In this document: positions 34,526 to 58,930 of the stretch, piece by piece
Numbering within the stretch: the stretch's first letter is position 1
Layout: each line of letters opens with the position of its first letter
DNA from: an archaeon
GTDB lineage: Archaea > Nanobdellota > Nanobdellia > Woesearchaeales > UBA9642
Length of the DNA: 64,000 bases
Direction: 5' to 3'
Assembly (NCBI GenBank): GCA_020057295.1
Contig: JAGVGF010000002.1
Coordinates: 96,001 to 160,000 of the forward strand
Position numbers and translations under genes: made by a program
Notes under the pieces: generated by a model
What the model was told of the DNA's origin: nothing
Database searches by the model: none
Seen by the model: the letters and a program-made list of their open reading frames with translations, nothing else

Positions 34526-34567
34526 TTTCCAAAATATTTAAATGTACGAGTAGTTATTTTGTTCTTA

Positions 34568-35947: not shown

Positions 35948-35987
35948 TCGTGCTGTATATTGTTTTGAAGATTTAGATGATAAAAAT

Positions 35988-41900: not shown

Positions 41901-44900
41901 GATGATGTTACATTTTGCTACATTTATTTTATTGGAACAGTTACTGCAAATGCAGTTAATGAAAATAATTATCACGTGTATTACGGAAATGTAAATGCAT
42001 CATATTCAACGCAAAGCGTGTATGTTTCCGGAAATTATATTTTAGAACAATTGTTTTATGATGATTTTTCAACTGCATCAATAACTTCAAATTGGACTGT
42101 AAGTTCTGGATGGGACGCATCTAATGCAAATCCCTTAGCTGGAGATCACGCTCATATTCAAGGAACTGTTACAGATGCGACGATTAGACTTACAAATTCT
42201 TTAAATTTGTTAAATTATGATTTTGTAAATCTATCATTTACGTGGGGTATAGATGCATCATGGGATGCTGGTGCTCCTCTTGATTATTTACGTTATGATT
42301 ATAGTAATGATTCTGCAAGTACGTGGACTGGAAGCGGAGGAGTAGGAACATTAAACGGGAACGGTGTTGCTCAAACACAAACAGTAAATACTCAATTAAA
42401 TAGTTCTTATAAGATAAATGGATTCAATTTAAGATTTAGAGCAACAACAAATAATGCAAATGAAGATGGGGGATTTGATACTTTTAATATTACAGGACAG
42501 TATGCTGTACAATCAAGTGTAAATTCAAATGTCGGAAATCATCAAGTTTGGATTTTAAGAACTACAAATGTTACAAATTCTTCTGGACAGTATAATACAA
42601 CATTTACCACTCTTGGAAGAACTTATGGAAATTATAGTGCTGTAGGATACGCTTATCCTCCAAATGTTAATTTACGTCAAGGATGGGGATATGATTATTT
42701 TGATTTAATTGCGGATCAATTTGGTCCTGTGATTACTTTGTTATATCCAACTAATGCAACAACTCTTAGAAGTGGAAATATCACTTTCAATTATACTGCT
42801 GTAGATTATGCAAATAATGTGGCAAATTGTTCATTATACATAAACGGAGTATTTAATCAATCAAATTCTACAATAAATGAATCTATAACTAACAATTTTA
42901 CTTCTGAATTATTCGAAGGACAATATTATTGGTTGATTAATTGCTTTGACTCTTTAGGTTCACAAACAAATTCTTCAAGATACAATTTAACAATAGATGA
43001 TACTCCTCCAATAGTTAGTCTAATAAGTCCAAATAATTCTGTTCTTCCATCTGGAACAATTACTTTTAACTTTAATGTAACTGATAATTTTGATACTACG
43101 ATTTTGTGTAATATCACAGTTGATTCTGGAAATTACTCAAAACTTTTCAACACTTCAAATGGTGTAAATTCTACAACAATTGCAAATATTACTGATGGAT
43201 TGCATTATTGGAATATGACTTGTTATGATAATATAAATAATAATGCGACTAGCACAACATTAAATTTCACAACAGCAACAATTCCTATTGTTACTTTGCA
43301 TTCTCCGGCCACAAATTATGGCGTGAATAGTACAAATATTACTTTGTATTATAATTTATCCTCTGTCAATGTTGATAATTGTTCGTTAGTATTGAATGGT
43401 CAATACAATCAAACAGTAAATAGTACACAGATTCCATTTAAGGCAAATGATGGACAAAATGTATTCAATTTAACTGGAATGGGTTACGGAATATACAATT
43501 GGACAGTAATATGCTTTGACTCAAATAATTTTAACGGAACCGATACGACAAGAATTTTCCATTTAGATAATGCTTTCCCTATAATTAATTTATCATATCC
43601 TGCAAATAATCAAACAATATTTAGCAGAAATATTAATTTCACATTCAACGTTACAGATATTGATGATGTATTAGTATGTAATTTAACAATTGATGGTGTT
43701 GTGAATAAAAGCAATCAAAATATTTCTTCTAATAATTCTGGGAAAGTAGGAAGTATATATGTTACTGGACTTTCTGTAACTAATCATAATTGGAGCGTTG
43801 CATGTGCTGACAATGTAGGATTTTCTACTACTTCTGTAACTTGGAATTTTACCATTGACTCAAGTGTAAGCATTTCTCTTACGAGCCCCGCAAATAATTT
43901 CCTATCTAGTTCTGGAAGCGTAAATTTCATTTATGTTCCAAGCAGTCCTGCGGATTTTGATTTAGGATTCTGTGATTTATACATTAATGATTCAATATAT
44001 GCAACGCATGTAGCTTTAACTTCAGGATCACCAGACACTTTTGCTGTCGCTGGATTAGGAGAAGGTAGGTATAATTGGTCGATTAATTGTACTGATAGCG
44101 TCGGAAAAAATGGTGCTAGTGAAACAAGAAATTTCACGCTTGATATGACTGGTCCGATTGTAACAAATTATTATCCTAATGGAAATGTCTTTACAAATAG
44201 TTCAGTATTTTTCAATTGGTCTGCAACAGATAATTATGATGCAAACATGAGCTGTACAATACTTGTTAATGGAACAGCGCAATCACCAATTGTTTATTCG
44301 TTAAATGGAACTGTAACGAATCATACTTATTCAAATTTCCGTGACGGATTATTATTCTGGAATGTTACATGTACTGATGATGCAGGAAATAATGGAACAA
44401 GCAGTTTGAAAAATTTCACTGTACAAGAACCTCCAGCAATTACTTTAAATTCTCCCTCTAACAATAATCGAACTAAAAATAGGAATATAACGTTTTATTA
44501 CACTCCGACAGATAATTCTGGAAATATAAGTTCATGTAGCATAATATTTGACGGTTTATTAAATCAGACAAATTCGACACAATTAGCTTCAGGTGTGCAG
44601 AGAAACTTTACAATAAATAATATTGCTGCTGGAAATCATACCTGGTCAATTAACTGTACTGACCCTTCAGGAAATATAGGATCATCAATAAATTATACTT
44701 TCTATATAGATCTATATGCTCCAACAATTGTTTTAGATAGACCTATTGAGGGAGATTTCTTAAATACAAATGATGTATTCTTTAACTGGACAGCAACAGA
44801 TTATTCTGGAACAACAATAAATTGTTCATTATATGTTGATAATTTATTCAAAAATTCAACAGCTAGAACGAGCGGATCATCATTTAATATAACAGCATAT

Positions 44901-47900
44901 AATCTAACTGATGGACCACATAATTGGAGTGTTAATTGTTCTGATGATTTAGCCAATTATTTAATGAGTGAAACAAGAAATTTCACAATAAATCAACCTG
45001 ACTTATACATAGATAATAATAGAATAATTTTCAATAACACAAATCCTGATGAAAATAGCACTATTAACATAACTGTGAACGTTACGAATATAGGTGGAGT
45101 TCCCGCAAACAATATTCTTGTAGAGTTTTGGGATGGACTTCCAAATGTGGGAACATATATTGGTAATGATACAGGAACTGTTGCTGTAAATGGTTCAAGA
45201 ATATATTCAGTATTATGGAATATTACATTAGGATATCATAATATTTGGGTTATTGTTGATCCATATAATACTCAAGGAGAACTTAATGAATCTAATAATA
45301 ATGCCACGAAAAACATTTCCATATTAAGATCTATAATTAATAGTCCTTTAAATGGTACTGCATCTATAAATTCTAATGTTACAATAAATTTCACGCTACA
45401 AGATTTCACTACAGGCAATATTAATTATTCAGTATTTGTTGATGGATCCTTTAATGGACAGAATGGTTCAGTGGTTGATAATGTATCAACGTTACTAAAT
45501 GTTACATTAACGCAAGGGTTACATTATATACAAATTCAAGCTAGAGATTTACTTGGCAGATATAAAAATTCCACCAGAGTATATATCACTATAGATTATA
45601 CTGCACCACAACCTGTTATTAACACAGTAAATTATACATGGTACAATTATAGTATTCCTCAAATAAATATTAGCGCAACAGATAATGTTTATACAAACAT
45701 TTCTTACAGAGTTTACGTTAATGGTACAGAAAATATTAATGGCACAATAACCAATGGAACTTCAAAGTTTGTAAACCTATCAACTTTAAGCGATGGATAT
45801 TATGTATTAATAATGGAAGCATGGGATTTCTTGAATAATACTGCTAACAGTACACCAAAATATATCTATGTCGACACAACAAAGCCCACAATTACATTAA
45901 ATAGCCCGGGTAATAATGCAAATATTACAAATAGAACTGTACAATTAAACTTTACAGTTAATGATAATTTAGCAAATAATGCTACATGCAATATCACATT
46001 AGATGGTTTGATAGTTAGTTTTCCTACTGTAAACATTAGTCAGCCATATATTTATACAGCGAACAATTTGATTGAGGGAACACATTATTGGAATGTTACA
46101 TGTATGGATCAAGCACTAAATATTAACACAAGTGTTACAAATTCTTTTAACGTTTATATTGCTCCAAATATTACTCTTGTAAGTCCATCTAACAATCAAT
46201 GGAGTAATACAGCAAATAACACTTTCTATTTCAATGTCAGTGATGAAACAGGATTAGAGAATTGTTCAATAATATTAAATGGCGTGATTAATCAGACAAA
46301 AACTACTGCACAATTGGTAAACAACGGGACAAATAATTTTACAATTACGGAAATGATTTCTGGAAATCATACATGGAGCATTGAATGTTATGATAATACA
46401 TTATATCATACATATAGCATAAGCAGTAATAGAACATTGTACGTTGATTTAATTAGACCACAACCAAATATCGAAACACTAAATAATTCATGGTTTAATA
46501 CTGCCACTCCTTTGATAACATTTAATATCACAGATAATATGGCATTAACGATAAATTATACACTATTTGTTAATGGTTCCGGTAATACTAATGGTGTGGT
46601 TACAAATGGTTCAACAATTTCAGTAAATTTACAGCCATTACAAAATGGAACTTACTCAGTAATATTACAAGGCACTGATTTAGCAGGCAACGTTCAAAAT
46701 TCTACACCTATAATAATCTATATAGATACAATATTACCATCAATAAATTTAACATATCCCGCTAATGATACAAATATTACTGCAAGTTATACTAACTTAA
46801 ACTTTACACCATCAGACAATATGGCATCATACTTAATGTGTAATGTTACATTAGATGGAAATAATGTTGGCTTGAATATTAATGTAACTAATGGTCAAAA
46901 TCAGAATGTGAGCGTTTCATCAATTAATGGAGGATATCATTATTGGAATGTTACATGTATGGATCAAGCAGGTAATAAAAATACTAGTCAGACATTCAGA
47001 TTCTACATCCAAATGCCAGATTTGTATATAAACACTAGTTCAATATATTTTAGTAACAATAATCCTATAGAAAACGAAACAATAAATATCACAGCAACAA
47101 TATATAATATAGGAAATATTGATGCATTCAACTTCATAGCAGAGATACGTGCTATAAACCAGACAGGACCGATAGTAGCTAATGTTACATTAAATTTATC
47201 TGCAGGAAATTATACAAATATCACAGGAAGTTATATGTTACCAATAGGAGATACATCGTTCTATGTCTTAGTTGATACTCCTATAACAACAAACGGTTCA
47301 GTTCAAGAAGAAAATGAATCAAACAATAATGCAAGTAAAACAATTCATGTAGGATTATGGGAATATGTTGTGGGAACTACAATTGACAAACTGGCTTTAA
47401 TAAATAACTTATCAATATATGATTGGATAGTGAATAATGCTACAGGAAGCAATTTGTATGTTACAGATGCAGATTCAAATATTAACTGGTTTACACTACA
47501 AGCGCTAGGTAGAAACATATCGAACGGAACGTCAGGAACTGATTTCTACACATTTGACACAAAAATAAATTCTACAATACTCACAGATTCAGTGAATAGA
47601 ACATATACTTTAGGAGGACAGCCTATAGAAACTATAAATTACACAGTCTTTAGAAGATTTATTACCAACATTCCGATTGTTAATAGTACAAATAATACTA
47701 ATTTCAAAACAGGATTACTATGGGATACAGGAGATGGTGGAATAGCGTATAATGGAACACAAGATGTGGTTCTCATATCGAAAATAAGTAAATCGACGCA
47801 GGGATACAATGCTACTGTAGATTATGAATTAAGAGTGCCTGCAACACTCAGATCGTATAAGGGATCTGTTAATCAAGTAGTATTTTATGGAGAAATTAAT

Positions 47901-47903
47901 TAA
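35988..47903 (+). CDS. Giant secreted surface protein (~3970 aa): ~20 Ig-like repeats, DUF2341, 2 CARDB-like domains, C-terminal shared domain
   Basis: Signal peptide after M33 of the track ORF (VYA-V); repeated C-x-L-x-I/L-D/N-G...G-x-H/Y-x-W-N-V-T-C-x-D; PWWNTSWNYRK; PDLYI...ELNESNNNA; very many N-x-S/T sequons; no C-terminal TM. Confidence 0.88.
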   Translation: MNNNKNFGNRMLMSVLFLLVILLSFSVHSVYAVKLQSELKDTNIILSLDDSKFNGVDLGENYELMMSLGNQNYKYFGGMIFPIIINTNGEGLYSFKLLNKSNQEILSEISVSKTFDCDKLSLNVAPSTKSSNNDVGTYSVGEEISIHLFEGQIALSNIPQFIIISIIAQNNSDKVYRLSGDITSKFIPSESGTYTVSLYCNSGAIYSKDIVVKSSDASSDVSMGNVSIIEPYTQNNDLVHSNIENNGANYSIKRITVKNSRNEVFIGDVKAYNIRSEAPVGIRQKILSLLSSNSGKEIIGKIEMDLNGVSGLENTKLSLNDVDSTSNTVLIESISKKNIEEKNTINLEGSIEGSIVDAYALDLSALSFTNGTLTKTAKGRVLWKCKDWNFAQQTCFGKWIEVMNIRPGEDYSFEVSPNDPGFIETGLATINTDKSIYQIGESAKISAVVLDTQGYLVSNATVNIMITTPGNTVYFFDNVAESKRGIYEIIFNHNDIIGNYTMQVSAYKNETNLGMTQYVNYSMISDFSVMEYYDFDIIRNIPITTDPFRKPLYAKILIHPLNENITNYNFTEVIPSDLLVIDAPGATISNAGNETHLTWTGLNGNVTLNYTTQPPLITPNLLILGKAFIEYVINSATYIFVEFRNWFIAVDPTVTRDQGLVVYADRTDDGFIKYRNWTGSTLQSEVNSGVDFGNRIAWLKFRCLVNREQCILVGSDTGADINFNVFYTNNWTWSTNTQLDGSSETSQSNIDLDCESLSGQCIVVYEDSTNNDAVFVYRIWNGTDISGINTVTITGGENNEIDWINLYPQKGTNNIGIAIQNDGGGVNTDTPAIYSAIWNGTNFTNWRTLTANSPADGTSRTFYRHYDCAWEGGTGYFGCFYANDTLNAILFDRFNGTNWNYMGRIFNTSGEPREISACGQEGLSSFNHSYIGLMFCDSANDLDGTIWNGTSLLKTTHAASPAQNTNAECGDSNKGATEYAQNFKCTWEDDGSKALFVWVNNGVTYLTSGSYTKATSTFSNPNWTSGTQIVANGAGALRSAYLVSNPASNSVFLTYTDGARDGGCSLWTGTTWDGSGCNSATVFETTGPNVGVAWLVFDWFRNPPPQPEITIITPTNSIGYINYTGITNPSSTSIAWDNGTTALPPPGASAPITGVEFPSAEYVKITSSNDIRHITTVTGTAGRYAYQSFNFTVTESTVNMQSIIVTHEGYATQTTSLTASQFYIYGYNWSSDSYVLLKTVFASSVDVTSEVTIDAGFNDFVRNRQMYVLVQGSFAIGVGANARADINTDYMGLTVETIPMLSQNITVNASAIDDDGISKCEWIFYNSTNGNPNSLIGMINTFGDYYYNFSSISGVPDGYYNLTVFCNDTLSARTNESVYVYIDSTPPAIILYNPTNNSNITVNYALFSWNATDILYANLVCNLTIDGTVRATNVVSAHAENISRNITSITDGTHYWNVTCRDDAGNRNISQTWRFDSDTIGPAVTLNSPSASSYTNKNPLDLNFTATDSHTIVNCSLYLDGSLNQTITSVTSGIMTNFTFTNLNQGVHNWNVSCYDSFGLRGNSTSRNFTYDTILPTVYLNISTGYIFNGTIPILNYTVIDNIDSNLTCNITVNSVIELANIASTNNTLISRSVPLLDGFKQWNVTCVDDAGNVNTSETRIFQVIGGPLVTLQTPVNGTIGNGTNITLKYYAQDGNGVANCSLYINDVLNQTNTSITSGANNTFLISSLNEGRYNWSVTCYDTNGYPGYSSTWQIISDRSKPSINLSAPISGQVLTTTPTYFNFTLLDFYSTNATCNLTIDGIVNAGNQNFVALNGSVTTRSQTVTNGLHYWNVTCIDLGYNFNTSLTRNFTINVTFPVSVTVVADKTQYQEGEIAQINITTKNETSGNIATNITLDYIYTNNTYTDIPWWNTSWNYRKSIVLNQTNNTLISSKAILVNVTVPYGTITNCHELRVVSDSDLSFVDSNVITGDDVTFCYIYFIGTVTANAVNENNYHVYYGNVNASYSTQSVYVSGNYILEQLFYDDFSTASITSNWTVSSGWDASNANPLAGDHAHIQGTVTDATIRLTNSLNLLNYDFVNLSFTWGIDASWDAGAPLDYLRYDYSNDSASTWTGSGGVGTLNGNGVAQTQTVNTQLNSSYKINGFNLRFRATTNNANEDGGFDTFNITGQYAVQSSVNSNVGNHQVWILRTTNVTNSSGQYNTTFTTLGRTYGNYSAVGYAYPPNVNLRQGWGYDYFDLIADQFGPVITLLYPTNATTLRSGNITFNYTAVDYANNVANCSLYINGVFNQSNSTINESITNNFTSELFEGQYYWLINCFDSLGSQTNSSRYNLTIDDTPPIVSLISPNNSVLPSGTITFNFNVTDNFDTTILCNITVDSGNYSKLFNTSNGVNSTTIANITDGLHYWNMTCYDNINNNATSTTLNFTTATIPIVTLHSPATNYGVNSTNITLYYNLSSVNVDNCSLVLNGQYNQTVNSTQIPFKANDGQNVFNLTGMGYGIYNWTVICFDSNNFNGTDTTRIFHLDNAFPIINLSYPANNQTIFSRNINFTFNVTDIDDVLVCNLTIDGVVNKSNQNISSNNSGKVGSIYVTGLSVTNHNWSVACADNVGFSTTSVTWNFTIDSSVSISLTSPANNFLSSSGSVNFIYVPSSPADFDLGFCDLYINDSIYATHVALTSGSPDTFAVAGLGEGRYNWSINCTDSVGKNGASETRNFTLDMTGPIVTNYYPNGNVFTNSSVFFNWSATDNYDANMSCTILVNGTAQSPIVYSLNGTVTNHTYSNFRDGLLFWNVTCTDDAGNNGTSSLKNFTVQEPPAITLNSPSNNNRTKNRNITFYYTPTDNSGNISSCSIIFDGLLNQTNSTQLASGVQRNFTINNIAAGNHTWSINCTDPSGNIGSSINYTFYIDLYAPTIVLDRPIEGDFLNTNDVFFNWTATDYSGTTINCSLYVDNLFKNSTARTSGSSFNITAYNLTDGPHNWSVNCSDDLANYLMSETRNFTINQPDLYIDNNRIIFNNTNPDENSTINITVNVTNIGGVPANNILVEFWDGLPNVGTYIGNDTGTVAVNGSRIYSVLWNITLGYHNIWVIVDPYNTQGELNESNNNATKNISILRSIINSPLNGTASINSNVTINFTLQDFTTGNINYSVFVDGSFNGQNGSVVDNVSTLLNVTLTQGLHYIQIQARDLLGRYKNSTRVYITIDYTAPQPVINTVNYTWYNYSIPQINISATDNVYTNISYRVYVNGTENINGTITNGTSKFVNLSTLSDGYYVLIMEAWDFLNNTANSTPKYIYVDTTKPTITLNSPGNNANITNRTVQLNFTVNDNLANNATCNITLDGLIVSFPTVNISQPYIYTANNLIEGTHYWNVTCMDQALNINTSVTNSFNVYIAPNITLVSPSNNQWSNTANNTFYFNVSDETGLENCSIILNGVINQTKTTAQLVNNGTNNFTITEMISGNHTWSIECYDNTLYHTYSISSNRTLYVDLIRPQPNIETLNNSWFNTATPLITFNITDNMALTINYTLFVNGSGNTNGVVTNGSTISVNLQPLQNGTYSVILQGTDLAGNVQNSTPIIIYIDTILPSINLTYPANDTNITASYTNLNFTPSDNMASYLMCNVTLDGNNVGLNINVTNGQNQNVSVSSINGGYHYWNVTCMDQAGNKNTSQTFRFYIQMPDLYINTSSIYFSNNNPIENETINITATIYNIGNIDAFNFIAEIRAINQTGPIVANVTLNLSAGNYTNITGSYMLPIGDTSFYVLVDTPITTNGSVQEENESNNNASKTIHVGLWEYVVGTTIDKLALINNLSIYDWIVNNATGSNLYVTDADSNINWFTLQALGRNISNGTSGTDFYTFDTKINSTILTDSVNRTYTLGGQPIETINYTVFRRFITNIPIVNSTNNTNFKTGLLWDTGDGGIAYNGTQDVVLISKISKSTQGYNATVDYELRVPATLRSYKGSVNQVVFYGEIN

Positions 47904-50900
47904 TGAATATACATTTGCCTGAGTATCGGAAGAAGAATATAATACTTGCTGAAACACTTAAGAATACATCTTTATTTGTATTCTTTGTGACTTTATTATT
48001 TTTAATAGTCACTCCCTCAGTTACAAGTATTCCGATGATGAGTTTTGACAAAAATTATTATGTAACAAATGATGTTGTTAGCATATTAACAAAAGATCCT
48101 TCTCCATTGACTATATCTGGTTCATTAACTCTTGAAGTTTCAATAAAGGAAGATACTAATTATTATTTTAAATATCTTGGATCTGTTAATGAGATTATAT
48201 CATTTATTCCCACACAGTCTGGGGAATATATTTTTAGATTATATAATGAAAATGGAAATTTAATTGATGAAAAGAGTTTCCTTGTCTATGATAAAAGTGT
48301 CGATTCGTGTGCAACTCATAAACTAGGATCTCAAATATTGATTGATTTAGAAGAATACGCTTTTGATTTAGGATCAAAACTTCCTTCGGAAATAGAATTA
48401 ATATATTCAAATGCATTGTCAACTAACAAAATAGTTTATAATGGCGGGATAACTCCACAGATATATTATACTCCTAGTATTATTGGAAAATACTCGTTAT
48501 ACGCTGACGGAATATATCTTGCTTGTTATGACATAATAGATGATTTCGCAATAGAAAATTCTAAGATAATACACTCTACAAATGAAAATTTAAACAATAT
48601 TACTTATTTAAATAATCAAATCAGTAATCAAACTAGCAATAGTATGAACAAAACTACTTTTATTAATGGATTAAATATTTCTCTTATCTCAAACCAGTAT
48701 GATTCAAAAAACACTTCTTCAATTGTTATAGATCTTAATAATTCGCTTATTCAGTCAGAAACAGGAAGATTAAAGAAAAAAATTATTCTATTCAAGATAA
48801 AAAATAGTCTAAACGAAAGTTTGAACGCTGATACTTTTGTTTATGAGAAAGAAAAAATCGTTGGTACAATTCAAAACACTAATTCAAATAACAAAGATTA
48901 CGCTTCGAATGTAAAAGATAATATTTTAGAAAACAATTTATTATTAAATACGAGGATTTCTGTTATTGATTATACTGCAAACACTTCAATTTCTAATAAT
49001 GCTTACACTCCTGATTTTCTCGTTATTAATGATACAAGCGCGAGTTTACAAAATGCATCACTTGACGCAGATATAGAATTTGTTTCTGGAAGTGTTAAGA
49101 AAATAAATTTCAAAAATTTGGAATATAAAGAAAATATGGAAGTAGGAGTTGATGAAGTTACTGAAAAATTATCTTCTAATAAATTATTGGAAAAATCAGA
49201 AAAAAAAGAGTTGAAAGCTTACGCTGTAAATCTTTATGATTTGAATTTTACTGCTGCTTCTTTTACAAGTATTGCTGTAGGAACAGAATTGTGGAAATGT
49301 AAAGATTGGAATTTTACGACACAATCATGCTTTGGAACATGGAGTAAATTAATGGATATTATTCCTGGTCAAGAATATAATGTAAGTTTATTCCCTGGAG
49401 ATCCAGGATTTATTGAAACATTTGATGTAAATGTAGCAATAGATATAGATATTCTTGCTCTTGATAATAACACTGTGGTTCTAGCATGGATAAAGAATGG
49501 AACAACCGTAACCGGAAATTTTGAAATATGGAATACTAATGGATCCATAATTGTTAATGATACAACATTTGATGCAGGAATGGATACTCAAAGTCGAGTT
49601 TCGCTTGATTTAATTAATACTAATGATTTTATAATTGCTTCAATTGATGGTTCAACAAATATTTCAAATTTCTATTTTTATAATCGTACAGGCAGTATGA
49701 TTCAAAGTGCAACAACAATTAGTGCTAATGTTGGAGATTTTAATGATTTATCTGTATGTCAATTGGGCGATAGATTTATTTATTCTTATATTGATGCAAA
49801 TCCTGCACAGTTTGATGGTTCATTTCAAATAGTGAATAACTCTGGAAATTTTATAGGTACAATAACTGATGTTGATACAACAGTTACAACAACTACTGCT
49901 CTACAAAACTTTGTATCTTGTGCTGCAATTAATATTACTAACTGGGTATATTTATACTATGATGTTACATCATCAGATGTAACACTTAATGCACGTACAA
50001 ATACTGGAACTAATGTTGTTCTAACTGATTTAAATGCTAATGTAGGTACAACATCACAAGTTGCCGTCGCAACATCAAGAAATGAATATATTGCGAATTT
50101 ATATTATAATTCCGTTGCTGCAACTCAAGATGTAATATTAAATATACGACAATTGAATGGCGCAGTTCTTACTAATATTGCAACAGTTACTCCTGATGCG
50201 ACAGCTGGCGCAAATATTCGTCTGGATATTGCAGAAATTGATGCTTTAGGAACCAGCTACTTTGTTCCGACGTGGTATGATGCAGGAGATACAACAATAA
50301 AAGCGGCAGTGTACAATGAAACCGGAGGACAAATAACTGCTCCATTTATTGTTACAACCACACCTAACACCGGATATAGAATTGTTGCAGTTGCAGGATA
50401 TAATTCTAATGCAGAACTCGGACTTTGCAATGGAACATTTGTAATTGCATATACAAATAGTAGTGGAAATGCCATATTTAATAAATATTTAATTAATGGA
50501 TCTCAATGGAATGGAATTTGTCCTGATGTAACGCCTCCAACTGTCAATCTAACGTATCCTTCAAATGATTCTATTGTCGAAAATAATAATATTTCATTTA
50601 ATTTCACAGTAATTGATGATAGAGATGTTGTACTCCCTAATTGTAGTTTATATACAAATTTCACAGGAAATTTCATAATTAACAAAACAATATATAATGT
50701 AACTTCTGGAATAGAAACATCAATTAATGTCACAAATATCGATGATGGAAAATATATTTGGAATATTAGATGTTATGATAATTCATCAAATAACGCTTTT
50801 GCCATAAATGCTCCAAACAATTTTACGTTGTATATTAACAAAAATATTCCCTCAATAACCAACCCTCTAATAAATAGAACTGTTTTAAATCAAAGTAATT

Positions 50901-53900
50901 ACGTGCAACTTAATGTGACAATTAGTGATAGTTTTGGAATAAGCAATGCATTATTAACGATGTTATATCCTAATGGTACAAAAATAAATTATACTCTTAG
51001 TAATTCTGGAAATAATTATTATTATAATTTTAATAATACTGTTCAATTAGGGATATATAACATTACTTTAGTTTGGGCAAATGACACTTTAGGACAATCA
51101 AATCAAAATAACACGTTGATTTTATCTTTTAATGTTACTGCAAGCCCTCCGTCGGATTTCAATCTTTTAGCCCCTACGAATGCAACAGTTTCCACTAATC
51201 TAATTCCGAATATGAATTGGCAGCAAACAACTGATGAAACATTTGCAAATTACACGTTAATTCTAGATAAGGATTCAACATTTGCAACTCCAGATTATAC
51301 TTATGCAATTTCTCCAATAACAAATACTTCTTACATATTAGGATTTGCACTTGATGTAAATTCTGTATATTATTGGAGAGTTATAGCATACGATATTTTT
51401 GGAAATAGTAAAAATTCAACAAACGATTTTATATACATCACAGATAACTCAGGCCCACTTATTACTCTAAACATTCCTGAAACTAATTCTTTTGTACTTA
51501 TGAGCAATGTGTTATTTAATTATACTCCGATTGATGCAAATACTATTTCGAATTGTACATTATATACAAATGCTACAGGAACATTTTCTCCAAACCAAAC
51601 AAATTTTACTATTGCAAATACTCTTCCTAATTATTTATCTATGAACTTAAATGACGGATATTATTTATGGAATATTTTATGTTTTGATCAAGTTGGAAAT
51701 TATAAATTTTCAAATAATAATTTTACATTAAAAATTGATACTACTCCTCCTAATGTTACAATACTAAATCCTCAAAATAATACTTATGAAAATAATACTA
51801 ACAATGTGTTATTTTATGGAAATGCAACAGACGTAATGACTGGTGTGGACAATTGTTCTCTAATAATAAATAACACTGTTAGACAAACCAAATCCGTAAC
51901 TGAAGGAATAGTTTTTAATTTTACAGAATTTGTTTCTAATGGTAATTATGTATGGAACATAAATTGTACAGATTCAAATGGATTTATTGGAAGTTCAGTT
52001 AATTATTTTATCAATGTAAGTGTCGTTGATACTAATCCTCCACTTATACAATTGAATACTCCGACAAACAATGAATATATTAATACCTCGACAATAATAT
52101 TTAATTATACTGTAGATGATGCCTCAGGAATAGAAAATTGTTCTATTTTTATAGGTGGAATATTAAATTCTACAAATTATACTGTTAGTAATCATCAAGA
52201 TAATTTATTTACTATTTCAGAATTTACTTTCGGAACAAAAAATTGGCGTATAGCGTGCTATGATAATACTACAGAAAGAAATTATCGTCTAAGTTCTACA
52301 AGAAATTTCATTGTAGATTTAACAAATCCTGTTGTGACATTAAATATTCCAGGAAATTCAACAACTCCCTTATATCTAAATTACTCGACTATAGAATTTA
52401 ATTATACTCCTAGTGATGCAAATCTTTATTCTTGCGCATTATATGCTAATTTTACAGGATCATTTATAGAAGAACAAATAAATTTAACTCCAACAAATTC
52501 TCAAAATAATTATTTTACTCAAACAATTAATGACGGTAATTATGCTTGGAATATTTTATGTACTGATTTATCATCAAGAAGTAGTTTTGCTTTACAAAAT
52601 TATTTAATATTAGTTGATACACATGCTCCTGATTACTCAAATATTAATGTTTCTCCATATTCTAATTCGCCGTATAATTCATCAAAAAAATATTTCTTTA
52701 ATATTACTTGGACGGATAATTTTGAAATTTCTCAAGTTATTTTTGAATCAGATATTGATTCGTATGCATTATATGGTATTTCTGGAAATTTAACAAATTA
52801 TACAATTAACAGTTCTGACTTAGGAAGTTCAAAAAATTATAGTATTAATTTTACTAATATTGCTGCAGGAAATTATGTTTATACATGGTATGCAATAGAT
52901 GCTGCAGGAAATTTAAATAAGACCGAGCTTTTAACTTACAATGTTTCGCAAGAAAATTCTAGTGTGAATTTATTAATTAATGGCTCAGATGCCAATTTTA
53001 GTATTAATGAAGGAAATTATGTTAATTTAACAGGAACATTATTAGTTCCATTAATAGGAGTAATAGATTTGTATGTGGGTGAATCATTAATAAATTCAGG
53101 AATTGCTCCGATTTATAATATTACATTATTTGAAAATCCGGGTATATATAATGTGACTGCATTTTATAATTATTCTCAAAATTATTCTTCAAGTTCTGAT
53201 ACACATTTTGTTATTGTGAGTGATATAAGTTCTCCGCTAATAACGTTAAATGTTCCCATAACTAATTCTCCAATAGCTTCAGGAGAAATAACTTTGCAGT
53301 ATATTGTGAATGATAAATCCGATATTGCTAATTGTAGTTTATATATCAATGGAACATTAAATCAAACAGATAATTCTATTACTAGAAATGTGACGCAATT
53401 CTTTGTAGTTTCCTTACCCCAAGGAAATTACACCTGGACTGTAGATTGTTATGATAATTCTTCAAACCATAATTACAATATTTCTACTACATGGATATTC
53501 AGGGCACTTGACGCATCAGTCATTAATCTAGTCGTGTCTCCATTAGAATCACAATATGAAATAGTAGAAAATGCTATAATCGAGATAAATACTACCGGGC
53601 AATTTAATGACACATTAAACACTAATTTTACAGCTGATATAATATATGGAAATACTTCCCTTCCTTGGTGGAATACGAGCTTTAAGTATAGAAAGAATCT
53701 GTTATTTACAGAAAATTATAATAATTCAAGAGATGTGACTATGGATGTAAATATAACAGGATTAAGCGCATTAATAAATAATTGTACTACTCAAACAAGA
53801 ATTGTCGAGATTGTTATATATAACGGAACGATAAATCAATCTATTATTCCATTTGAAATTCTTTCAGGAGATGATAGTAATAATTGTTTTGTAAGATTTA

Positions 53901-56356
53901 ATGTAAATATATCTGCACTTCAAAATAATCAAACAAGATATCTAATATACTATGATAATACAAGTACAACCTCTGCTACTCAAACAGTTCCATTAAAGGG
54001 AATAAATATTCAAAGAGATACTGTTTCTGCAACAGGAGCTACTCTTACTGTCGGCATTACTAGTGCAAATCGTAGTAAATCTTTCATTTTATTTACTTCA
54101 AGAGTTGGTTCAACAGGACCAAATCAACACGAGATAACCAGTGATATGCTTATTGATACTCAGATAAGATTCGAGAGATATCTTGGCACTACTGCTGCTA
54201 ATATTTATTGGCAATTAATAGAAGGTTCAGATATTAATGTTCAAAGAGGATTGACTTCTTTTATAGCTACAGACGCAAATATTAATGTAACTGTAAACTC
54301 TGTTAATTTATCAAATTCATTTTTGATAATTAATGGACGTGTTAATTCTGGAACCGCAGGTCAAGCACCTAGAGGAATATTTGAAGGACGATTTATTAAT
54401 TCAACAACAATTTCTCTATCAAGAGGAATTACGGGAACGGCAGCAATTGCGGGATGGCAAGTTGTTGAATGGTCTAAGACTAATGTTCAATCAAATAATT
54501 TAACTTTAACTGCTAATCCTGTTATTGTTAATATTAATCCTGTAGTTGTTAATAGATCTTTTTTAATAATATCTAGAACCACTACAGGAGATACTGGTGC
54601 AGATACCAATTATGTTTTAGGATATATAATAAATTCTACTGCAATAAATATTTCACGTGTTGGAACTACAGGTTCTACAGTTGTTACATGGTTTGTTGTT
54701 GAATTACCTAATGAATATTATATTCAATCAGGTCAAGTCTCTACAACAAATTCTGTAAACCAAGCAATAACTTCTGTGGATATGTCACAAACTTTTAATT
54801 CAGAATCTTGGTCTTCTACTCAGACAGGAACAACTTATACTAATGCAATGATGACTTCTTTTTTGACGAATTCTACTAATATGAATTATACAAAACAAAC
54901 CGCAGTAAATACAAATGTTATAGGATGGTTTGCAATACAATCAAGAGATCCACAATATTCTATAGATGATACTCATAAATTTATAACTCGAGAATCAAAT
55001 GTTACTGGAGCCCTCGGAACATATAATTTGGTTTGGAATACTGCTAATCAATCATTTGGAAATTATTCTGTTGTTGTGACAGCAACAAAAGCGAATTATA
55101 CTACCGCATATGATTATGGAACATTTGAATTAATACCTGATCAAACTCCCCCAAATGTTACTCTTTTAACTCCACTAAATGCTACGGTCTCTGGATCGGG
55201 ATATTTTAATTTTACTTATGTTCCATTTGATTTGACTCTCGCAAGTTGTACATTATATATGGATATAAACGGGATTTTTGGACCTCAAGCTACAAATCTT
55301 AGTCCAATAAATAATGCCTCAAACACTTTTTCTTCCATCTATGTTGGTGCGGGATTCTTTAATTGGAATATAAATTGTACTGATTTATATAATAATTCAG
55401 GATTCTCTCCTTATAATTATACTCTTAATATTACTGGACCAGACTTGGTTATTACAAGAGATGATATATGGTTTAGCAATGATTCGAGATTAGAATTTGG
55501 AAATATAACCTTATTTGCAAATATCACAAATCAAGGGTTGAGTCCAGCAAATAGATCATTCATTGTACAATTTTTTAGAGGAGATCCTGATACTACAGGA
55601 ATTCAAATCGGATCGAATATTACAATAATCAACATGACTGTCGGAGAAGTTATAACAATAAACACTACATATTTATTGACTTCTGGGTTAAATAATATTT
55701 TTGTGAAGTTGGATTCAAATAATTTATTAAATGAATCAGAAGAATCTAATAATAAAGCAAATAATAGTTTAAATATTGGACTATATCAATATTATTTTGG
55801 GAATGTGTCACGAAATTTTGTATTCGGATCTCCTTCTGGAAATTTAACTGTATTCTATTCAGAAGTTAATAGTACTCCTAATGGCTACTTATTTATAGCA
55901 GATGCAGATAGTGTCTTTTCGTTCGCAAATCTACAAGCATTGTCTAGAAATATAAATAATAATTCTGTAAATAATGATTTTTCTGATTTGGATATATCGT
56001 TGAATAGTACTGGATCTTCCGGCTCTATAAATGAAGTGTGGACCAATAATACAGATTCTCCTTTGCATGTTGATATAATTAATTTAACTTCAAAAATAAT
56101 AAACGATGTTCCTTTTATAAATAGCACTACGAATAGTAGTTTTGAAACAGGCATATTATGGGATACTAGTGATGATTTGTCATTAAACTTACAATATGAT
56201 CCCACAGATAAAGAAGATGTCGTATTTGTTACTAAAATATCGACACCAATGATTGGAAGTTATGGTACATACAATTACGAGTTGAAAATACCTTCCAACT
56301 TAAGATCTTATTCCGGTAGCGTTAATATGGTAACATTTTATTATGAATTGAAATAA
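47903..56356 (+). CDS. Giant secreted surface protein (2817 aa): ~11 Ig-like repeats, DUF2341 with inserted repeats, CARDB, C-terminal shared domain
   Basis: TAATG coupling to the upstream giant gene; N-terminal hydrophobic segment; same architecture; PWWNTSFKYRK; PDLVI...ESEESNNKA; ends VTFYYELK. Confidence 0.88.
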   Translation: MNIHLPEYRKKNIILAETLKNTSLFVFFVTLLFLIVTPSVTSIPMMSFDKNYYVTNDVVSILTKDPSPLTISGSLTLEVSIKEDTNYYFKYLGSVNEIISFIPTQSGEYIFRLYNENGNLIDEKSFLVYDKSVDSCATHKLGSQILIDLEEYAFDLGSKLPSEIELIYSNALSTNKIVYNGGITPQIYYTPSIIGKYSLYADGIYLACYDIIDDFAIENSKIIHSTNENLNNITYLNNQISNQTSNSMNKTTFINGLNISLISNQYDSKNTSSIVIDLNNSLIQSETGRLKKKIILFKIKNSLNESLNADTFVYEKEKIVGTIQNTNSNNKDYASNVKDNILENNLLLNTRISVIDYTANTSISNNAYTPDFLVINDTSASLQNASLDADIEFVSGSVKKINFKNLEYKENMEVGVDEVTEKLSSNKLLEKSEKKELKAYAVNLYDLNFTAASFTSIAVGTELWKCKDWNFTTQSCFGTWSKLMDIIPGQEYNVSLFPGDPGFIETFDVNVAIDIDILALDNNTVVLAWIKNGTTVTGNFEIWNTNGSIIVNDTTFDAGMDTQSRVSLDLINTNDFIIASIDGSTNISNFYFYNRTGSMIQSATTISANVGDFNDLSVCQLGDRFIYSYIDANPAQFDGSFQIVNNSGNFIGTITDVDTTVTTTTALQNFVSCAAINITNWVYLYYDVTSSDVTLNARTNTGTNVVLTDLNANVGTTSQVAVATSRNEYIANLYYNSVAATQDVILNIRQLNGAVLTNIATVTPDATAGANIRLDIAEIDALGTSYFVPTWYDAGDTTIKAAVYNETGGQITAPFIVTTTPNTGYRIVAVAGYNSNAELGLCNGTFVIAYTNSSGNAIFNKYLINGSQWNGICPDVTPPTVNLTYPSNDSIVENNNISFNFTVIDDRDVVLPNCSLYTNFTGNFIINKTIYNVTSGIETSINVTNIDDGKYIWNIRCYDNSSNNAFAINAPNNFTLYINKNIPSITNPLINRTVLNQSNYVQLNVTISDSFGISNALLTMLYPNGTKINYTLSNSGNNYYYNFNNTVQLGIYNITLVWANDTLGQSNQNNTLILSFNVTASPPSDFNLLAPTNATVSTNLIPNMNWQQTTDETFANYTLILDKDSTFATPDYTYAISPITNTSYILGFALDVNSVYYWRVIAYDIFGNSKNSTNDFIYITDNSGPLITLNIPETNSFVLMSNVLFNYTPIDANTISNCTLYTNATGTFSPNQTNFTIANTLPNYLSMNLNDGYYLWNILCFDQVGNYKFSNNNFTLKIDTTPPNVTILNPQNNTYENNTNNVLFYGNATDVMTGVDNCSLIINNTVRQTKSVTEGIVFNFTEFVSNGNYVWNINCTDSNGFIGSSVNYFINVSVVDTNPPLIQLNTPTNNEYINTSTIIFNYTVDDASGIENCSIFIGGILNSTNYTVSNHQDNLFTISEFTFGTKNWRIACYDNTTERNYRLSSTRNFIVDLTNPVVTLNIPGNSTTPLYLNYSTIEFNYTPSDANLYSCALYANFTGSFIEEQINLTPTNSQNNYFTQTINDGNYAWNILCTDLSSRSSFALQNYLILVDTHAPDYSNINVSPYSNSPYNSSKKYFFNITWTDNFEISQVIFESDIDSYALYGISGNLTNYTINSSDLGSSKNYSINFTNIAAGNYVYTWYAIDAAGNLNKTELLTYNVSQENSSVNLLINGSDANFSINEGNYVNLTGTLLVPLIGVIDLYVGESLINSGIAPIYNITLFENPGIYNVTAFYNYSQNYSSSSDTHFVIVSDISSPLITLNVPITNSPIASGEITLQYIVNDKSDIANCSLYINGTLNQTDNSITRNVTQFFVVSLPQGNYTWTVDCYDNSSNHNYNISTTWIFRALDASVINLVVSPLESQYEIVENAIIEINTTGQFNDTLNTNFTADIIYGNTSLPWWNTSFKYRKNLLFTENYNNSRDVTMDVNITGLSALINNCTTQTRIVEIVIYNGTINQSIIPFEILSGDDSNNCFVRFNVNISALQNNQTRYLIYYDNTSTTSATQTVPLKGINIQRDTVSATGATLTVGITSANRSKSFILFTSRVGSTGPNQHEITSDMLIDTQIRFERYLGTTAANIYWQLIEGSDINVQRGLTSFIATDANINVTVNSVNLSNSFLIINGRVNSGTAGQAPRGIFEGRFINSTTISLSRGITGTAAIAGWQVVEWSKTNVQSNNLTLTANPVIVNINPVVVNRSFLIISRTTTGDTGADTNYVLGYIINSTAINISRVGTTGSTVVTWFVVELPNEYYIQSGQVSTTNSVNQAITSVDMSQTFNSESWSSTQTGTTYTNAMMTSFLTNSTNMNYTKQTAVNTNVIGWFAIQSRDPQYSIDDTHKFITRESNVTGALGTYNLVWNTANQSFGNYSVVVTATKANYTTAYDYGTFELIPDQTPPNVTLLTPLNATVSGSGYFNFTYVPFDLTLASCTLYMDINGIFGPQATNLSPINNASNTFSSIYVGAGFFNWNINCTDLYNNSGFSPYNYTLNITGPDLVITRDDIWFSNDSRLEFGNITLFANITNQGLSPANRSFIVQFFRGDPDTTGIQIGSNITIINMTVGEVITINTTYLLTSGLNNIFVKLDSNNLLNESEESNNKANNSLNIGLYQYYFGNVSRNFVFGSPSGNLTVFYSEVNSTPNGYLFIADADSVFSFANLQALSRNINNNSVNNDFSDLDISLNSTGSSGSINEVWTNNTDSPLHVDIINLTSKIINDVPFINSTTNSSFETGILWDTSDDLSLNLQYDPTDKEDVVFVTKISTPMIGSYGTYNYELKIPSNLRSYSGSVNMVTFYYELK

Positions 56357-56513: not shown

Positions 56514-57683
56514 ATGTTTGAATTATTCAAAAAGACGGACGAAGAAAAAAATTTAGATAAAAATGCGGATAAGCAAAAATTAGTAATGAGTAGTTCTTCA
56601 GATACCGCTATGGCATCTTTAGATCCTCCTTCAACATTGCCTGAATTAGCGAAAGACTTGTACGAGAAAGAAGAGGAAAAGAAATCAACTGTCAATGAAC
56701 CTGTTGAATCTGTAAAACTTTCCGAATCAAAGATTCCCAAAATTTCTATGAACAATATTCCTAAAATTACCTTTCCTACTGTCTCATTAGAACCGAACAA
56801 AGATAACGTTCCACAGTTAGATATGGATCTTATAAAATCACACACTGTTCCTAGAGAAGAACATAGAATAATAACTAAACCATTATCTTCACAGACAAGT
56901 CAAGCAAATAATTATGTTGATTCAACAGATTCTTTCTTATCTTTACTAAACAACAAAATTGAGGGAGGATTTTTTAAAGAATTCCAAGATTTTATTGTAC
57001 AGAATACTCTTAATGATACTTCAAAGAGAAATATATTGGAGGACTTATTGGGCAAAGATTTAGTCGAAAAAATGGTCTTATATCATAGTACTAGAGATTC
57101 TGAATTGCCGTTTTATTTATCAAACAATGAATTAACAGCTACTACGAGACATAAATTTGAAGAATTACAAAATTTAGAACATTCATGGATTAGCACAAAA
57201 CAAAAATTAGATATATTAAAAAAATTAAACAACACATTTGAAGTAGATATAAAATTAAAATCCGAAGAATTAAAAGGCCTACTAAAAGAAACACTTAAGA
57301 GATCAGACGGTGTTTCTCCAAGTGTTAATACACAAAATATTTCTACGAATTCAAACACCATGAAAAATGCGATAGATGTAGTAAATAATAATCAAGATAC
57401 TACTGATGTTCATAAAAATGCTTTTAGTATAATGACTTACGCTGTTGATCCTTCAAAATACTTCTATATGCACGATGGAAGAGTTTTAAAATCCTTGTTT
57501 GATTTGGTTGATGCTTTGAAAAATATTGACGACAATACTTTCTATCATCATGTGAATACTCAACGCAATGATTTTTCTAACTGGATAAATGGTGTATTTG
57601 AGCATCATATTTTGGCAGAACACATAAAAAATATTAGAAATAAACATGAATTATTAGAATTCTTCAAAAATAATACTTATTAA
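56514..57683 (+). CDS. Cytoplasmic protein with disordered N-terminus, coiled coil and C-terminal DUF5752-like domain
   Basis: MFELFKK start; YFYMHDGRVLKSL...HHVNTQRNDFSNWI. Confidence 0.8.
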   Translation: MFELFKKTDEEKNLDKNADKQKLVMSSSSDTAMASLDPPSTLPELAKDLYEKEEEKKSTVNEPVESVKLSESKIPKISMNNIPKITFPTVSLEPNKDNVPQLDMDLIKSHTVPREEHRIITKPLSSQTSQANNYVDSTDSFLSLLNNKIEGGFFKEFQDFIVQNTLNDTSKRNILEDLLGKDLVEKMVLYHSTRDSELPFYLSNNELTATTRHKFEELQNLEHSWISTKQKLDILKKLNNTFEVDIKLKSEELKGLLKETLKRSDGVSPSVNTQNISTNSNTMKNAIDVVNNNQDTTDVHKNAFSIMTYAVDPSKYFYMHDGRVLKSLFDLVDALKNIDDNTFYHHVNTQRNDFSNWINGVFEHHILAEHIKNIRNKHELLEFFKNNTY

Positions 57684-57882
57684 CAATTATAGATATTAAT
57701 ATATTCGTTATTAATAATACTTTGAACAGTTTTGTTACAAAGTATATAAAAATATACTTATATGCTTTCTTTAAAACAGATAAAAAGACTTTTATTATTC
57801 TTTATACTTATTTAAGGATTATTTTATTCTTATTATGTGTTAATAAGCCTTTAAAATTCTTTAAATTCCCTAGTTTACATAA

Positions 57883-57898
57883 GCGAAACATTTATATA
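57883..57898 (+). promoter_or_regulatory. BRE/TATA promoter of the first secreted paralog
   Basis: gcgaaaca-tttatata, about 100 nt upstream of the 58001/58010 start. Confidence 0.55.
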
Positions 57899-58000
57899 TG
57901 AGTATACCTATTTGTATATTAATTTAGTATTGTGTTACAAAAATTGTTTGTAATAATTAAATAAAAATCAACAGTAAAAAACAAGAACTCCGACGTAGAG

Positions 58001-58786
58001 GTGAACAGAATGAACCAAAAATTGGTTTTATACACATTGTTAGCGTTATTAACTATATCTATGGTAAGCGCTATACCAACAGGACCGCAATCTATGACTG
58101 AAATTGCAAGCAGTAGATGGCCTGAAGCAGCATATTTAGCTACAAATAATTCCGCAATAGCCGGTAATGTTACAGAATTAACTCTAAATGGTTCAACTGT
58201 CACTAGAACTTGGCAAGGTTACTTTGGTAATATAACAGGTATGGTTGTATTGGGAGATTCAGCTAATAATACACTATACGATTGGAGCGTTGCAAGTCCA
58301 CACGGTCAAGTATACGCACTTAAGAGTTCAGGAATTCCAGCATGGTCAAGCATTAGATGCGCAAATCAAACAGAACTACAAGCAGAAGATACATTATTGG
58401 GTGTAAATTCATCAGTAGATGTAGATGCTGTAAATAGAACTTTTGTTGTAGGCGGTGCACCAGACCAAATAACAAGATTTGGAGCAACACAATTAACTCA
58501 TCCTCTATTTTATGTTGGAAATGTATCAATAGTTAATAATACGTGTCCAGTAGCAGTAATGTATAATAGTACGACACAACCATCACCTTACTTCAAAGAA
58601 GTATTATTATCAGATGGAACAGCAGATCTAATATATACTGGTATAATCGCTCACACATTGAATCCTTTTGCAGAATCAGATGGTTTCGATGATAGAACAC
58701 ATGATTTCGAGATGATCGTTGGTGAAAATGGACATGGTACAGATGTTGCTGTAACGACATACTGGTTCTACCTAGAGCTAACATAA
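58001..58786 (+). CDS. Secreted ~240-aa repeat-family protein, subfamily A (putative filament subunit)
   Basis: Signal peptide VSA-IPTGP; AIAGNVTE, TWQGYFGNITG, HDFEMIVGENGH, YWFYLELT. The start may be ATG 58010. Confidence 0.85.
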   Translation: MNRMNQKLVLYTLLALLTISMVSAIPTGPQSMTEIASSRWPEAAYLATNNSAIAGNVTELTLNGSTVTRTWQGYFGNITGMVVLGDSANNTLYDWSVASPHGQVYALKSSGIPAWSSIRCANQTELQAEDTLLGVNSSVDVDAVNRTFVVGGAPDQITRFGATQLTHPLFYVGNVSIVNNTCPVAVMYNSTTQPSPYFKEVLLSDGTADLIYTGIIAHTLNPFAESDGFDDRTHDFEMIVGENGHGTDVAVTTYWFYLELT

Positions 58787-58930
58787 ATTTTTTTTATAAT
58801 TATATTTATTTTTAGGCAGAGAATTACATCCATATAGTTATTAACAAGGAATGCGTGAATGCAACAGTATCAACTGGAAAATCAAATAATCAATGTATAG
58901 CTTAAACTTATAATCAACCAACGAGGCAAA

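Follow-up and report, generated by a model that had tools for sequence, protein, structure and literature searches.

The C-terminal domain of two giant proteins of a Woesearchaeota-type archaeon is a shortened relative of neighboring small secreted proteins and a possible attachment module

We analyzed a stretch of 64,000 nucleotides (hereafter the window) that forms part of contig 2 of an archaeal genome of 1.2 Mb, assembled in 6 contigs and with a G+C content of ~30%. The closest relatives of its proteins carry the label Candidatus Woesearchaeota, and all the genes from 24.1 kb to the end of the window are encoded on the + strand. Two adjacent genes encode giant proteins, giant 1 and giant 2, and both giants end in a domain (hereafter the GC domain) that is also found in a series of small secreted paralogs encoded downstream (the subunits) and in the ectodomain of a membrane ATPase encoded upstream. 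An earlier sequence-only reading of the window had proposed that the giants end in an N-terminally shortened copy of the subunit domain and that they attach at the tip of a filament by accepting a strand from a subunit. Our results suggest that the window includes a conserved cluster of genes for a surface structure in a Woesearchaeota-type (DPANN) archaeon, in which one previously unnamed extracellular domain, with no recognizable solved fold, occurs in three forms. The features on which this analysis centers are the following (lengths in amino acids, aa):

27632-31525, + strand: membrane HerA/FtsK-like ATPase, 1297 aa (Pfam, hhalign and a scan for transmembrane (TM) helices).
27779-28342, + strand: subunit-like ectodomain of the ATPase (residues 50-237), with the AGxV strand kept and without the PxGP motif and the S/T-rich linker (hhalign).
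35892-47903, + strand: giant 1, 4003 aa with 246 N-x-S/T sequons; signal-like N-terminus, Big_13, Big_7 and MG2 Ig-like arrays, CARDB domain and GC domain at the end.
47016-47336, + strand: CARDB domain of giant 1 (residues 3709-3815), directly 5' of the GC domain (39.8 bits for Pfam PF07705, above its cutoff of 22.7).
47352-47900, + strand: GC domain of giant 1 (P0002, 183 aa), a homologue of the subunit core without the N-terminal segment; no Cys and 11 sequons.
47903-56356, + strand: giant 2, 2817 aa; signal-like N-terminus, Ig-like arrays, CARDB domain and GC domain at the end.
55427-55780, + strand: CARDB domain of giant 2 (residues 10-127 in the model of the last 318 aa; VIA match to 3idu_A with Z 14.1 and a root-mean-square deviation of 2.2 over 106 residues; Foldseek match to 3idu_B with E 2.1e-5).
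55778-56353, + strand: GC domain of giant 2 (P0003, 192 aa), from BLASTP, hhalign, profile search and model.
58001-58786, + strand: subunit P0004, 261 aa; Sec-type signal, mature N-terminus IPTGP, AGNVTELTL strand and two Cys.
58931-59662, + strand: subunit P0005, 243 aa.
60493-61269, + strand: subunit P0006, 258 aa.
61698-62414, + strand: subunit P0007, 238 aa, the paralog that was modeled; N-terminal segment 23-66 (61764-61895) and core 67-238.
63773-64000, + strand: start of the fifth subunit paralog, which crosses the end of the window (C2:159773-160495 in the genome).
C2:160456-161250: sixth subunit paralog, beyond the window.

The two GC domains are related to each other (E 3e-34, 37% identity; BLASTP) and each of them is related to the subunit P0007 (P0002: E 9e-6, 23% identity over 172 columns; P0003: E 2e-4, 24% identity over 197 columns). 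Profile comparisons with hhalign gave the same relationship, both for the four paralogs of the window against the two giant ends (96.6%, E 6.9e-10) and for 119 subunits against 12 giant-type ends (98.1%, E 1.2e-13), the latter alignment spanning residues 65-238 of P0007 and the last ~190 columns of the giants. We then searched the profile of the GC ends against 3605 six-frame open reading frames (ORFs) of at least 60 aa from the same N/S/T-rich genome. At E ≤ 0.01, this profile matched both giants and all six subunits (E 9e-8 to 2.8e-6) and no other ORF, and this specificity rules out a chance resemblance in composition between N/S/T-rich proteins. The GC domain is a genuine, N-terminally shortened homologue of the subunit core, located at the very end of the giants.

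The GC copies begin at a Trp equivalent to W67 of P0007 (profile position 73) and therefore lack the first ~42 residues of the mature subunit. The Cys pair that is nearly invariant in the subunits is also missing from the giant ends. The CARDB domain that precedes the GC domain yielded no Pfam match in giant 2 at E ≤ 0.01 and was assigned there from the structure of the last-318-aa model. No C-terminal hydrophobic segment was found in either giant; the TM-like stretches are the N-terminal signal-like segments and a marginal one in giant 2 (residues 1707-1730). On these points the sequence-only reading proved accurate: its coordinates and frames were right, every motif that it quoted was found in the translations, the match to the small paralogs was recovered by BLASTP and hhalign, the copies start right after a CARDB domain (by Pfam in giant 1 and by structure match in giant 2), the restriction of the alignment to residues 65-238 of P0007 agrees with the missing N-terminal segment, and the hydrophobicity scan was clean at both C-termini. 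As listed, the ORF of giant 1 shares 56 bases with the preceding gene (35285-35947; overlap 35892-35947), and translation may in fact start at a later Met located immediately upstream of the hydrophobic signal-like segment (residues ~33-45).

The family of the subunits is unnamed. Scans of four subunits and the two giant ends against Pfam and NCBIfam returned nothing above noise, and hmmscan of these six sequences against Pfam at E ≤ 1 returned no Peptidase_M73 or TasA-like family (the relations described in PMC12518558 are of HHsearch level). The profile of 119 subunits retrieved only an odorant-binding protein among PDB sequences at E ≤ 1 (E 0.76), and look-ups of P0007 and P0003 in the ESM Atlas led to unnamed archaeal clusters only. 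Against 1.84 billion representative sequences, the subunit profile matched 1234 cluster representatives at E ≤ 0.001 and 443 at E ≤ 1e-30; those matches that bear a name are labeled 'hypothetical protein' of Woesearchaeota. Our literature search, which did not cover supplements, found nothing on this family, and the lists of TasA-like homologues of PMC12518558 could include it.

The subunits present a regular architecture across the family. The Sec-type signal ends in A in 83 of 119 sequences and the mature N-terminus follows the pattern x-P-x-G-P/A (P24 in 114/119 and G26 in 100/119). It is followed by a variable linker rich in S/T/P/A (residues 28-49) and by a strand-like patch (residues 50-58) with the pattern (A/G)-G-(N/T)-(I/V)-T-x-(L/I/M)-x-(L/I/F), where G51 is conserved in 115/119 sequences, I/V53 in 110/119, and positions 56 and 58 are hydrophobic. 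The core then starts with a nearly invariant W (116/119), and two Cys are near-invariant. The six small subunits of this genome are probably glycosylated and disulfide-bonded. P0004 contains an insertion of ~14 aa (VVGGAPDQITRFG) in common with the giant type. Two conserved patches separated by a variable linker rich in S/T/P/A correspond to the layout expected of a reaching arm, which bears on the mechanism that had been proposed. Under this donor-strand polarity, the subunits would polymerize by strand insertion, each of them donating either AGNVTELTL or the PxGP arm to the following subunit, the giants would be acceptor-only tip adhesins and the ectodomain of the ATPase would form the base in the membrane.

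The third copy of the domain belongs to the ATPase, which is composed of a TM helix (residues 14-47), the subunit-like ectodomain (50-237), a CarboxypepD_reg-like domain (257-326), a second TM helix (598-630), a DUF87 P-loop region starting at residue 655 and C-terminal TPR repeats. Its ectodomain of ~550 aa includes a G/P-rich linker, and a coiled coil and a DUF5752-like stretch precede the TPR repeats. The ATPase region was recognized by Pfam (DUF87, 41.2 bits with a cutoff of 23.2; HerA_C, 26.6 bits with a cutoff of 22) and its closest solved chains in the PDB are HerA (E 2.7e-5). We know of no HerA protein with such an ectodomain, and a literature search on HerA membrane proteins and adhesins of DPANN found nothing relevant. 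The ectodomain aligned to the subunits from residue 50 (hhalign, 95.4%, E 1.7e-8), with IAGQAGYV placed against AIAGNVTE. The strand of the window's ATPase scored only 0.7 bits by HMMER. We inspected eight relatives of this ATPase: the seven that possess a subunit-like N-terminal domain all present a TM helix followed by (A/G)G(N/D/Y)(I/V)T...W.G.(Y/F)G, and the eighth (L022) lacks the domain. Since the motif is present in all seven domain-bearing relatives, retention of AGxV holds at the level of the family; the earlier statement that the ATPase copy keeps the AGxVxxxxL strand is thus borne out by the hhalign alignment and by these relatives, and not by HMMER alone. The full build of the ATPase is common to the relatives L063 and L054, and to L012 as far as can be seen from an ORF that runs off its contig.

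We further analyzed the evolution of the domain. To do so, we built a tree of the core region (97 sequences, 169 columns; FastTree with LG+gamma) from every fourth of 115 short representatives, 27 long full-type ends, every third of 90 GC ORFs, five ATPase-type sequences and the sequences of the window. The giant-type sequences form a monophyletic clade (support 0.999), as do the ATPase-type sequences (0.977), and both clades are separate from the subunits. The two giants belong to distinct subclades of the giant type, and both of these subclades include sequences from other genomes. A local deletion can be ruled out as the origin of the truncation, which is common to a clade with a support of 0.999. 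The GC form is an ancient, separate and conserved feature and not a local accident.

The distribution of the giant type was then determined by scanning one genome per species, which yielded 79 loci from Woese-, Pace-, Nano-, Micr-, Iain- and Altiarchaeota and from Methanoperedens. Giant-type ORFs (90 in total) were found in 77 of these 79 loci. The domain starts at or after position 62 of the subunit profile, beyond the conserved G of the AGNIT strand, in 83 of the 90. Across these sequences, the GC pattern is conserved and DPANN-wide. The strand is present in the subunits and in the ATPase type and absent from 83/90 giant-type ends, a distribution that fits the polar design of donor-strand assembly. 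The records from Methanoperedens (L057, L059, L061, L062, L066 and L068), which is not a member of DPANN, present giant-type ends preceded by CARDB, and four of them (L059, L061, L062 and L066) have divergent subunit-like genes nearby (profile scores of 85-101); these copies may have been transferred between the lineages of symbionts and hosts, or the contigs may be mis-binned.

In 95 of the 97 giant-type domains, no more than 3 aa separate the end of the domain from the stop codon. Such a strict position at the extreme C-terminus, together with the conserved terminal motif and the diversity of the N-terminal parts that carry the domain, would also be expected of a sorting or export signal. 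The GC domain would then be recognized extracellularly by the related ectodomain of the HerA-like ATPase, and might be removed afterwards; an ATPase with a matching ectodomain is indeed encoded in the cluster. However, the genome contains only two cargo proteins versus six free-standing copies with Sec signals of their own, the giants already possess N-terminal signal-like segments, and a Pfam scan of 13 neighboring proteins revealed no protease or sortase-like gene. We consider a sorting function to be very unlikely.

The three forms of the domain are also linked in genomes. In the genome analyzed here, the six subunits, the two giants and the ATPase copy are all found in one stretch of 38 kb and there are no others. 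At least one full-length subunit gene was found within 10 kb of the giant type in 35 of the 79 loci. When considering the 57 loci with at least 5 kb of downstream sequence, 29 hold a subunit gene and 17 have a subunit gene on the same strand within 6 kb. ATPase homologues were detected in 5 loci, those in which the giant-type gene is short enough for the flank to include them. Nine loci (L020, L024, L031, L032, L037, L048, L051, L052 and L055) present exactly two subunit genes directly 3' of the giant-type gene. The first gene of these pairs scores below the second against the subunit profile (~200-230 vs 250-285), which suggests a conserved pair of distinct subunit types.

At the genome level, we sampled 151 members of the phylum, of which 32 contained both forms, 3 the giant type only, 11 the subunits only and 105 neither. 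In total, 43 genomes contained subunits, with 1 to 7 matches in each, and 35 contained the giant type, 32 of them together with subunits. No statistical test was applied to this co-occurrence because related genomes are not independent. The giant type is rarely found without subunits and the reverse is common, an asymmetry that is predicted for an attachment module that depends on the subunits.

A fourth architecture was found among the best 150 matches. All 27 of the long relatives listed there (350-2359 aa) end in the whole module, including the GP motif and the AGNxTE strand, and in the core tree they nest inside the subunit clade. Since these full-type fusions keep the segment, its loss is a property of the giant-type clade and not of large N-terminal parts as such. 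In these long proteins (P0030-P0155, from other genomes), the module is preceded by a conserved Ig-like domain (…YNVSC…GF..L…DY.SI).

Structures were modeled for the terminal 318 aa of giant 2 and for the subunit P0007. The latter was modeled with AlphaFold2, with a mean predicted local distance difference test (pLDDT) of 87.8 and a predicted template-modeling score of 0.82, as an alpha+beta domain that is rich in strands and contains two short helices. Its N-terminal segment (residues 23-66) presents a pLDDT of 81-86 and DSSP assigned no strand to residues 26-66; these pLDDT values would fit a segment packed on its own domain. The model of the giant 2 end has a pLDDT of 93.2, its C-terminal domain being mostly at or above 94 except for the loop 67-68, and the secondary structure of the giant end runs parallel to that of the subunit core.

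These models matched no known structure convincingly. Foldseek searches of the subunit model against the PDB returned 0 matches at E ≤ 0.001, and the top row, CanA (7uii; E 0.2, TM-scores of 0.11/0.13), is at noise level, as is AbpA (7ueg; E 1.6). With VIA, none of 48161 chains exceeded a Z of 2.9 and no Ig-like pilin was among the matches, an absence that is still compatible with such a fold. In a second look at 564 chains the best Z was 2.8 (ywmB and TBP-like rows), and neither 7uii nor 7ueg was among the rows at Z ≥ 2. These best Z values fall below the typical range of the tool even for models without a clear match, and they constitute no proof of a new fold. Searches with the 318-aa model of the giant end were filled by CARDB matches and are uninformative on the C-terminal domain itself.

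The contact between the two forms was probed by co-folding the giant end (192 aa, alignment of 92 rows) with the whole mature subunit (216 aa, alignment of 119 rows), using custom alignments. The verdict of the tool was 'weak support': the interface score ipSAE reached 0.33 (0.26, 0.35 and 0.33 in individual runs) relative to 0.00 in three out of three controls, the runs shared at least 68% of their contacts and the pLDDT of the partner was at least 65. In the calibration of this mark, 58 of the 80 solved complexes passed it, versus 2 of the 110 mismatched pairs; passes at or below 0.60 comprise only 7 of those 80 solved complexes and both of the mismatches that passed. The pairing of giant end and subunit expected from the sequence-only reading thus passed the mark relative to its controls, but the pass was graded weak and no contacts were listed.

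These structural results bear directly on donor-strand exchange. In its favor, the monomer model leaves the AGNIT stretch without a strand partner in cis (DSSP assigned none of residues 26-66 to a strand) and the weak co-fold pass is compatible with it. Sec-type signals, several paralogs and the lack of a chaperone are also reminiscent of chaperone-free archaeal donor-strand filaments (PMC12518558). However, no Ig or jelly-roll fold was recognizable (best Z 2.9 and 2.8; CanA and AbpA at noise level) and the pLDDT of 81-86 of the N-terminal segment suggests that it occupies a definite position on the domain to which it belongs and may fold back there. The giant end was confidently modeled alone as a complete domain (pLDDT mostly ≥ 94). 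All 27 of the long relatives listed keep the segment behind their large N-terminal parts, and the co-fold returned no contacts. Moreover, if the PxGP arm were the donor, giants and ATPase would both be acceptor-only and could not occupy opposite ends; the polarity argument requires the AGNIT strand to be the donor. Four of these points (the fold, the placement of the N-terminal segment, the complete giant end and the long relatives) would still be compatible with strand insertion in trans. Taken together, donor-strand exchange is somewhat disfavored by what could be tested, and the polar arrangement with acceptor-only tip adhesins is in our view unlikely.

Another explanation is that the domain is a module for a shared ligand, which would bind the glycans of the cell's own envelope or the surface of a host. 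The small proteins would then be secreted or envelope-bound binders and the giants would adhere to that ligand through their copy of the module, with no polymer of subunits. A compact alpha+beta fold of unknown type is compatible with such a role, and so are the constant terminal position of the domain on large adhesin-like proteins, the many diverged paralogs per genome and the 11 of 151 genomes with subunits and without the giant type. This explanation does not account for the rarity of the giant type without subunits (3/35), for the presence of the same domain, on the outer side of the cell, in a membrane ATPase, or for a co-fold signal that is weak but clean in the controls. In addition, no lectin or carbohydrate-binding module stands out among the VIA matches, where such rows reach only noise-level Z values of 2.1-2.2. 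We therefore regard a shared ligand without polymer as rather improbable.

An attachment role of the GC domain through the shared domain is likely. In more specific terms, we favor the following model, to which we assign about an even chance: the GC copy of the giants would be a like-with-like attachment module that joins an assembly built of subunits, itself tied to the membrane by the ectodomain of the ATPase. The domain is present with a signal peptide and an N-terminal segment in addition to the core in the six small secreted subunits; as the core only, directly after a CARDB domain, at the extreme C-termini of the two giant Ig/CARDB proteins; and as strand and core, directly after a TM helix, in the ectodomain of the two-pass HerA/FtsK-like ATPase. 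Because the giants have no membrane anchor at their C-terminus, they would be held on the cell by joining the subunit assembly, and the ATPase ectodomain would tie this assembly to the membrane. A copy without the N-terminal segment can join and probably cannot pass the contact on, which would place the giants at a terminal or decorating position. The chemistry of the contact could involve the insertion of a strand or arm, or side-by-side packing. The data demonstrate the homology, the truncation and its conservation, the C-terminal position, and the linkage of the genes and their co-occurrence in genomes; from these patterns we infer that the subunits polymerize, that the giant copy binds to them and how the parts are arranged. 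What stands of the tip-attachment proposal is thus a shortened, conserved and linked copy with a weak co-fold signal, whereas the donor-strand mechanism itself is unsupported.

Several observations weigh against this attachment model. First, 28 of the 57 loci with enough flanking sequence have no subunit gene nearby. Second, 3 of the 35 genomes with the giant type present no subunit at E ≤ 1e-20 (one of these three is a fragment at the end of a contig) and 11 genomes contain subunits only. Third, by the counts of the co-fold tool, a weak pass is usually wrong for a pairing that was not likely beforehand. Furthermore, the fold offers no hint of function by Foldseek or VIA, and the polymerization of the subunits is itself only inferred. 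Finally, a shared domain could equally reflect a shared ligand rather than mutual binding.

The remaining genes of the cluster include two features of the region between and among the subunit genes:

56514-57683, + strand: cytoplasmic protein of the DUF5752 type, encoded after the giants and before the subunits, a position that is kept in 14 related loci.
59964-60500, + strand: helix-turn-helix (HTH) protein (Sigma70_r4_2 / HTH_23) among the subunit genes, with homologues in 14 related loci.

The cluster opens with a 109-aa protein that presents a sub-threshold Pfam match only, followed by a 1058-aa PKD/Ig membrane protein, the 1297-aa HerA/FtsK-like ATPase and cytoplasmic proteins of the DUF5752 and coiled-coil types. 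Next come giant 1, giant 2, the DUF5752-type protein and four secreted paralogs of ~240-260 aa with the HTH gene among them, and then an ArsR-type HTH gene (63148-63780) and the start of the fifth subunit paralog. The order giant, DUF5752 protein, subunits and HTH recurs in other genomes, homologues of the DUF5752 and HTH proteins being found in 14 loci each. The DUF5752 motif (HVN..KNDFANW-type) occurs in three cytoplasmic proteins of the cluster (31588-32814, with two copies, 34007-34525 and 56514-57683), and a looser version lies in the C-terminal part of the ATPase; our literature search found no mention of DUF5752. The 1058-aa protein (24420-27596) is composed of a signal peptide, PKD/Ig-like domains, one TM helix near residue 900 and a cytoplasmic helical tail, and weak homologues of it adjoin giant-type genes in three loci (L022, L039 and L004). 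Public sequencing runs with matching sequence comprise two groundwater DNA runs (word shares of 0.28 and 0.06), with no RNA run among them.

DPANN archaea live attached to other cells, and little is known of the molecules responsible for this attachment. In the cluster analyzed here, which is widespread, one shared domain connects giant adhesin-like proteins, small secreted proteins and a membrane ATPase. If this domain is the glue of a surface assembly, it would provide a testable handle on how the giants are displayed and may bear on how symbionts construct their appendages. A bolder possibility, which we hold to be quite improbable, is that the cluster encodes an undescribed class of archaeal surface appendage that would be widespread in DPANN, with a shaft of strand-joined subunits of a new fold, a base in which the HerA/FtsK-like ATPase, through an ectodomain that keeps the strand, couples a cytoplasmic motor to the extracellular polymer, and acceptor-only giant Ig/CARDB tips. 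If strand exchange were true, it would represent a further and unrelated origin of the donor-strand assembly principle. Cryogenic transmission electron microscopy of ultrasmall cells from groundwater revealed pili-like appendages that reach into hosts (PMC7906910), with no link shown to the cluster described here. Should such an appendage exist, it would be a candidate for these pili-like structures between ultrasmall cells and their hosts.

We finally compared the cluster with known systems. Some C-terminal domains serve the sorting or anchoring of proteins, as in type IX secretion or with SLH domains. Like these domains, the GC domain is located at the very C-terminus of otherwise unrelated large extracellular proteins; unlike them, it also exists as free-standing secreted copies and as a membrane-tethered copy, and no sorting protease was found among the scanned neighbors. 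The ATPase resembles the HerA/FtsK ATPases by its DUF87 and HerA_C matches above the Pfam cutoffs, and differs from them by its two TM helices, its ectodomain of ~550 aa starting with a subunit-like domain and its C-terminal TPR repeats.

The tip adhesins of chaperone-usher pili, such as FimH and PapG, consist of an N-terminal binding part and a C-terminal subunit domain without the N-terminal extension, and are encoded with paralogous subunits. The giants similarly end in an extension-less subunit domain with several paralogous subunits encoded alongside. In contrast to FimH pili, no Ig-like fold is recognizable here, the subunits are of Sec type, the organism is an archaeon and the domain also occurs, as a third copy, in a HerA-like ATPase. 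The Pfam scan of the 13 neighboring proteins (24098-35947 and 56514-63780) detected neither a chaperone nor an usher family. The analogy with FimH is also weakened by the long relatives, which keep the extension despite their large N-terminal parts.

A second point of comparison is the TasA superfamily, whose archaeal donor-strand filaments include the cannulae CanA/CanX, the bundling pili AbpA, the Saci_0406 thread and AbpX (PMC12518558). Like these filaments, the cluster encodes small subunits with Sec signals, in several paralogs and without a dedicated chaperone. The filaments of this superfamily have extracellular matrix or adhesion roles in archaea. Unlike them, the subunits present no Pfam match at E ≤ 1, including to Peptidase_M73, and their model is an alpha+beta domain with two helices and not a plain jelly roll. 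By analogy, the cluster would be closest in its logic to the FimH-type and TasA-type systems, while being assignable to neither of them.

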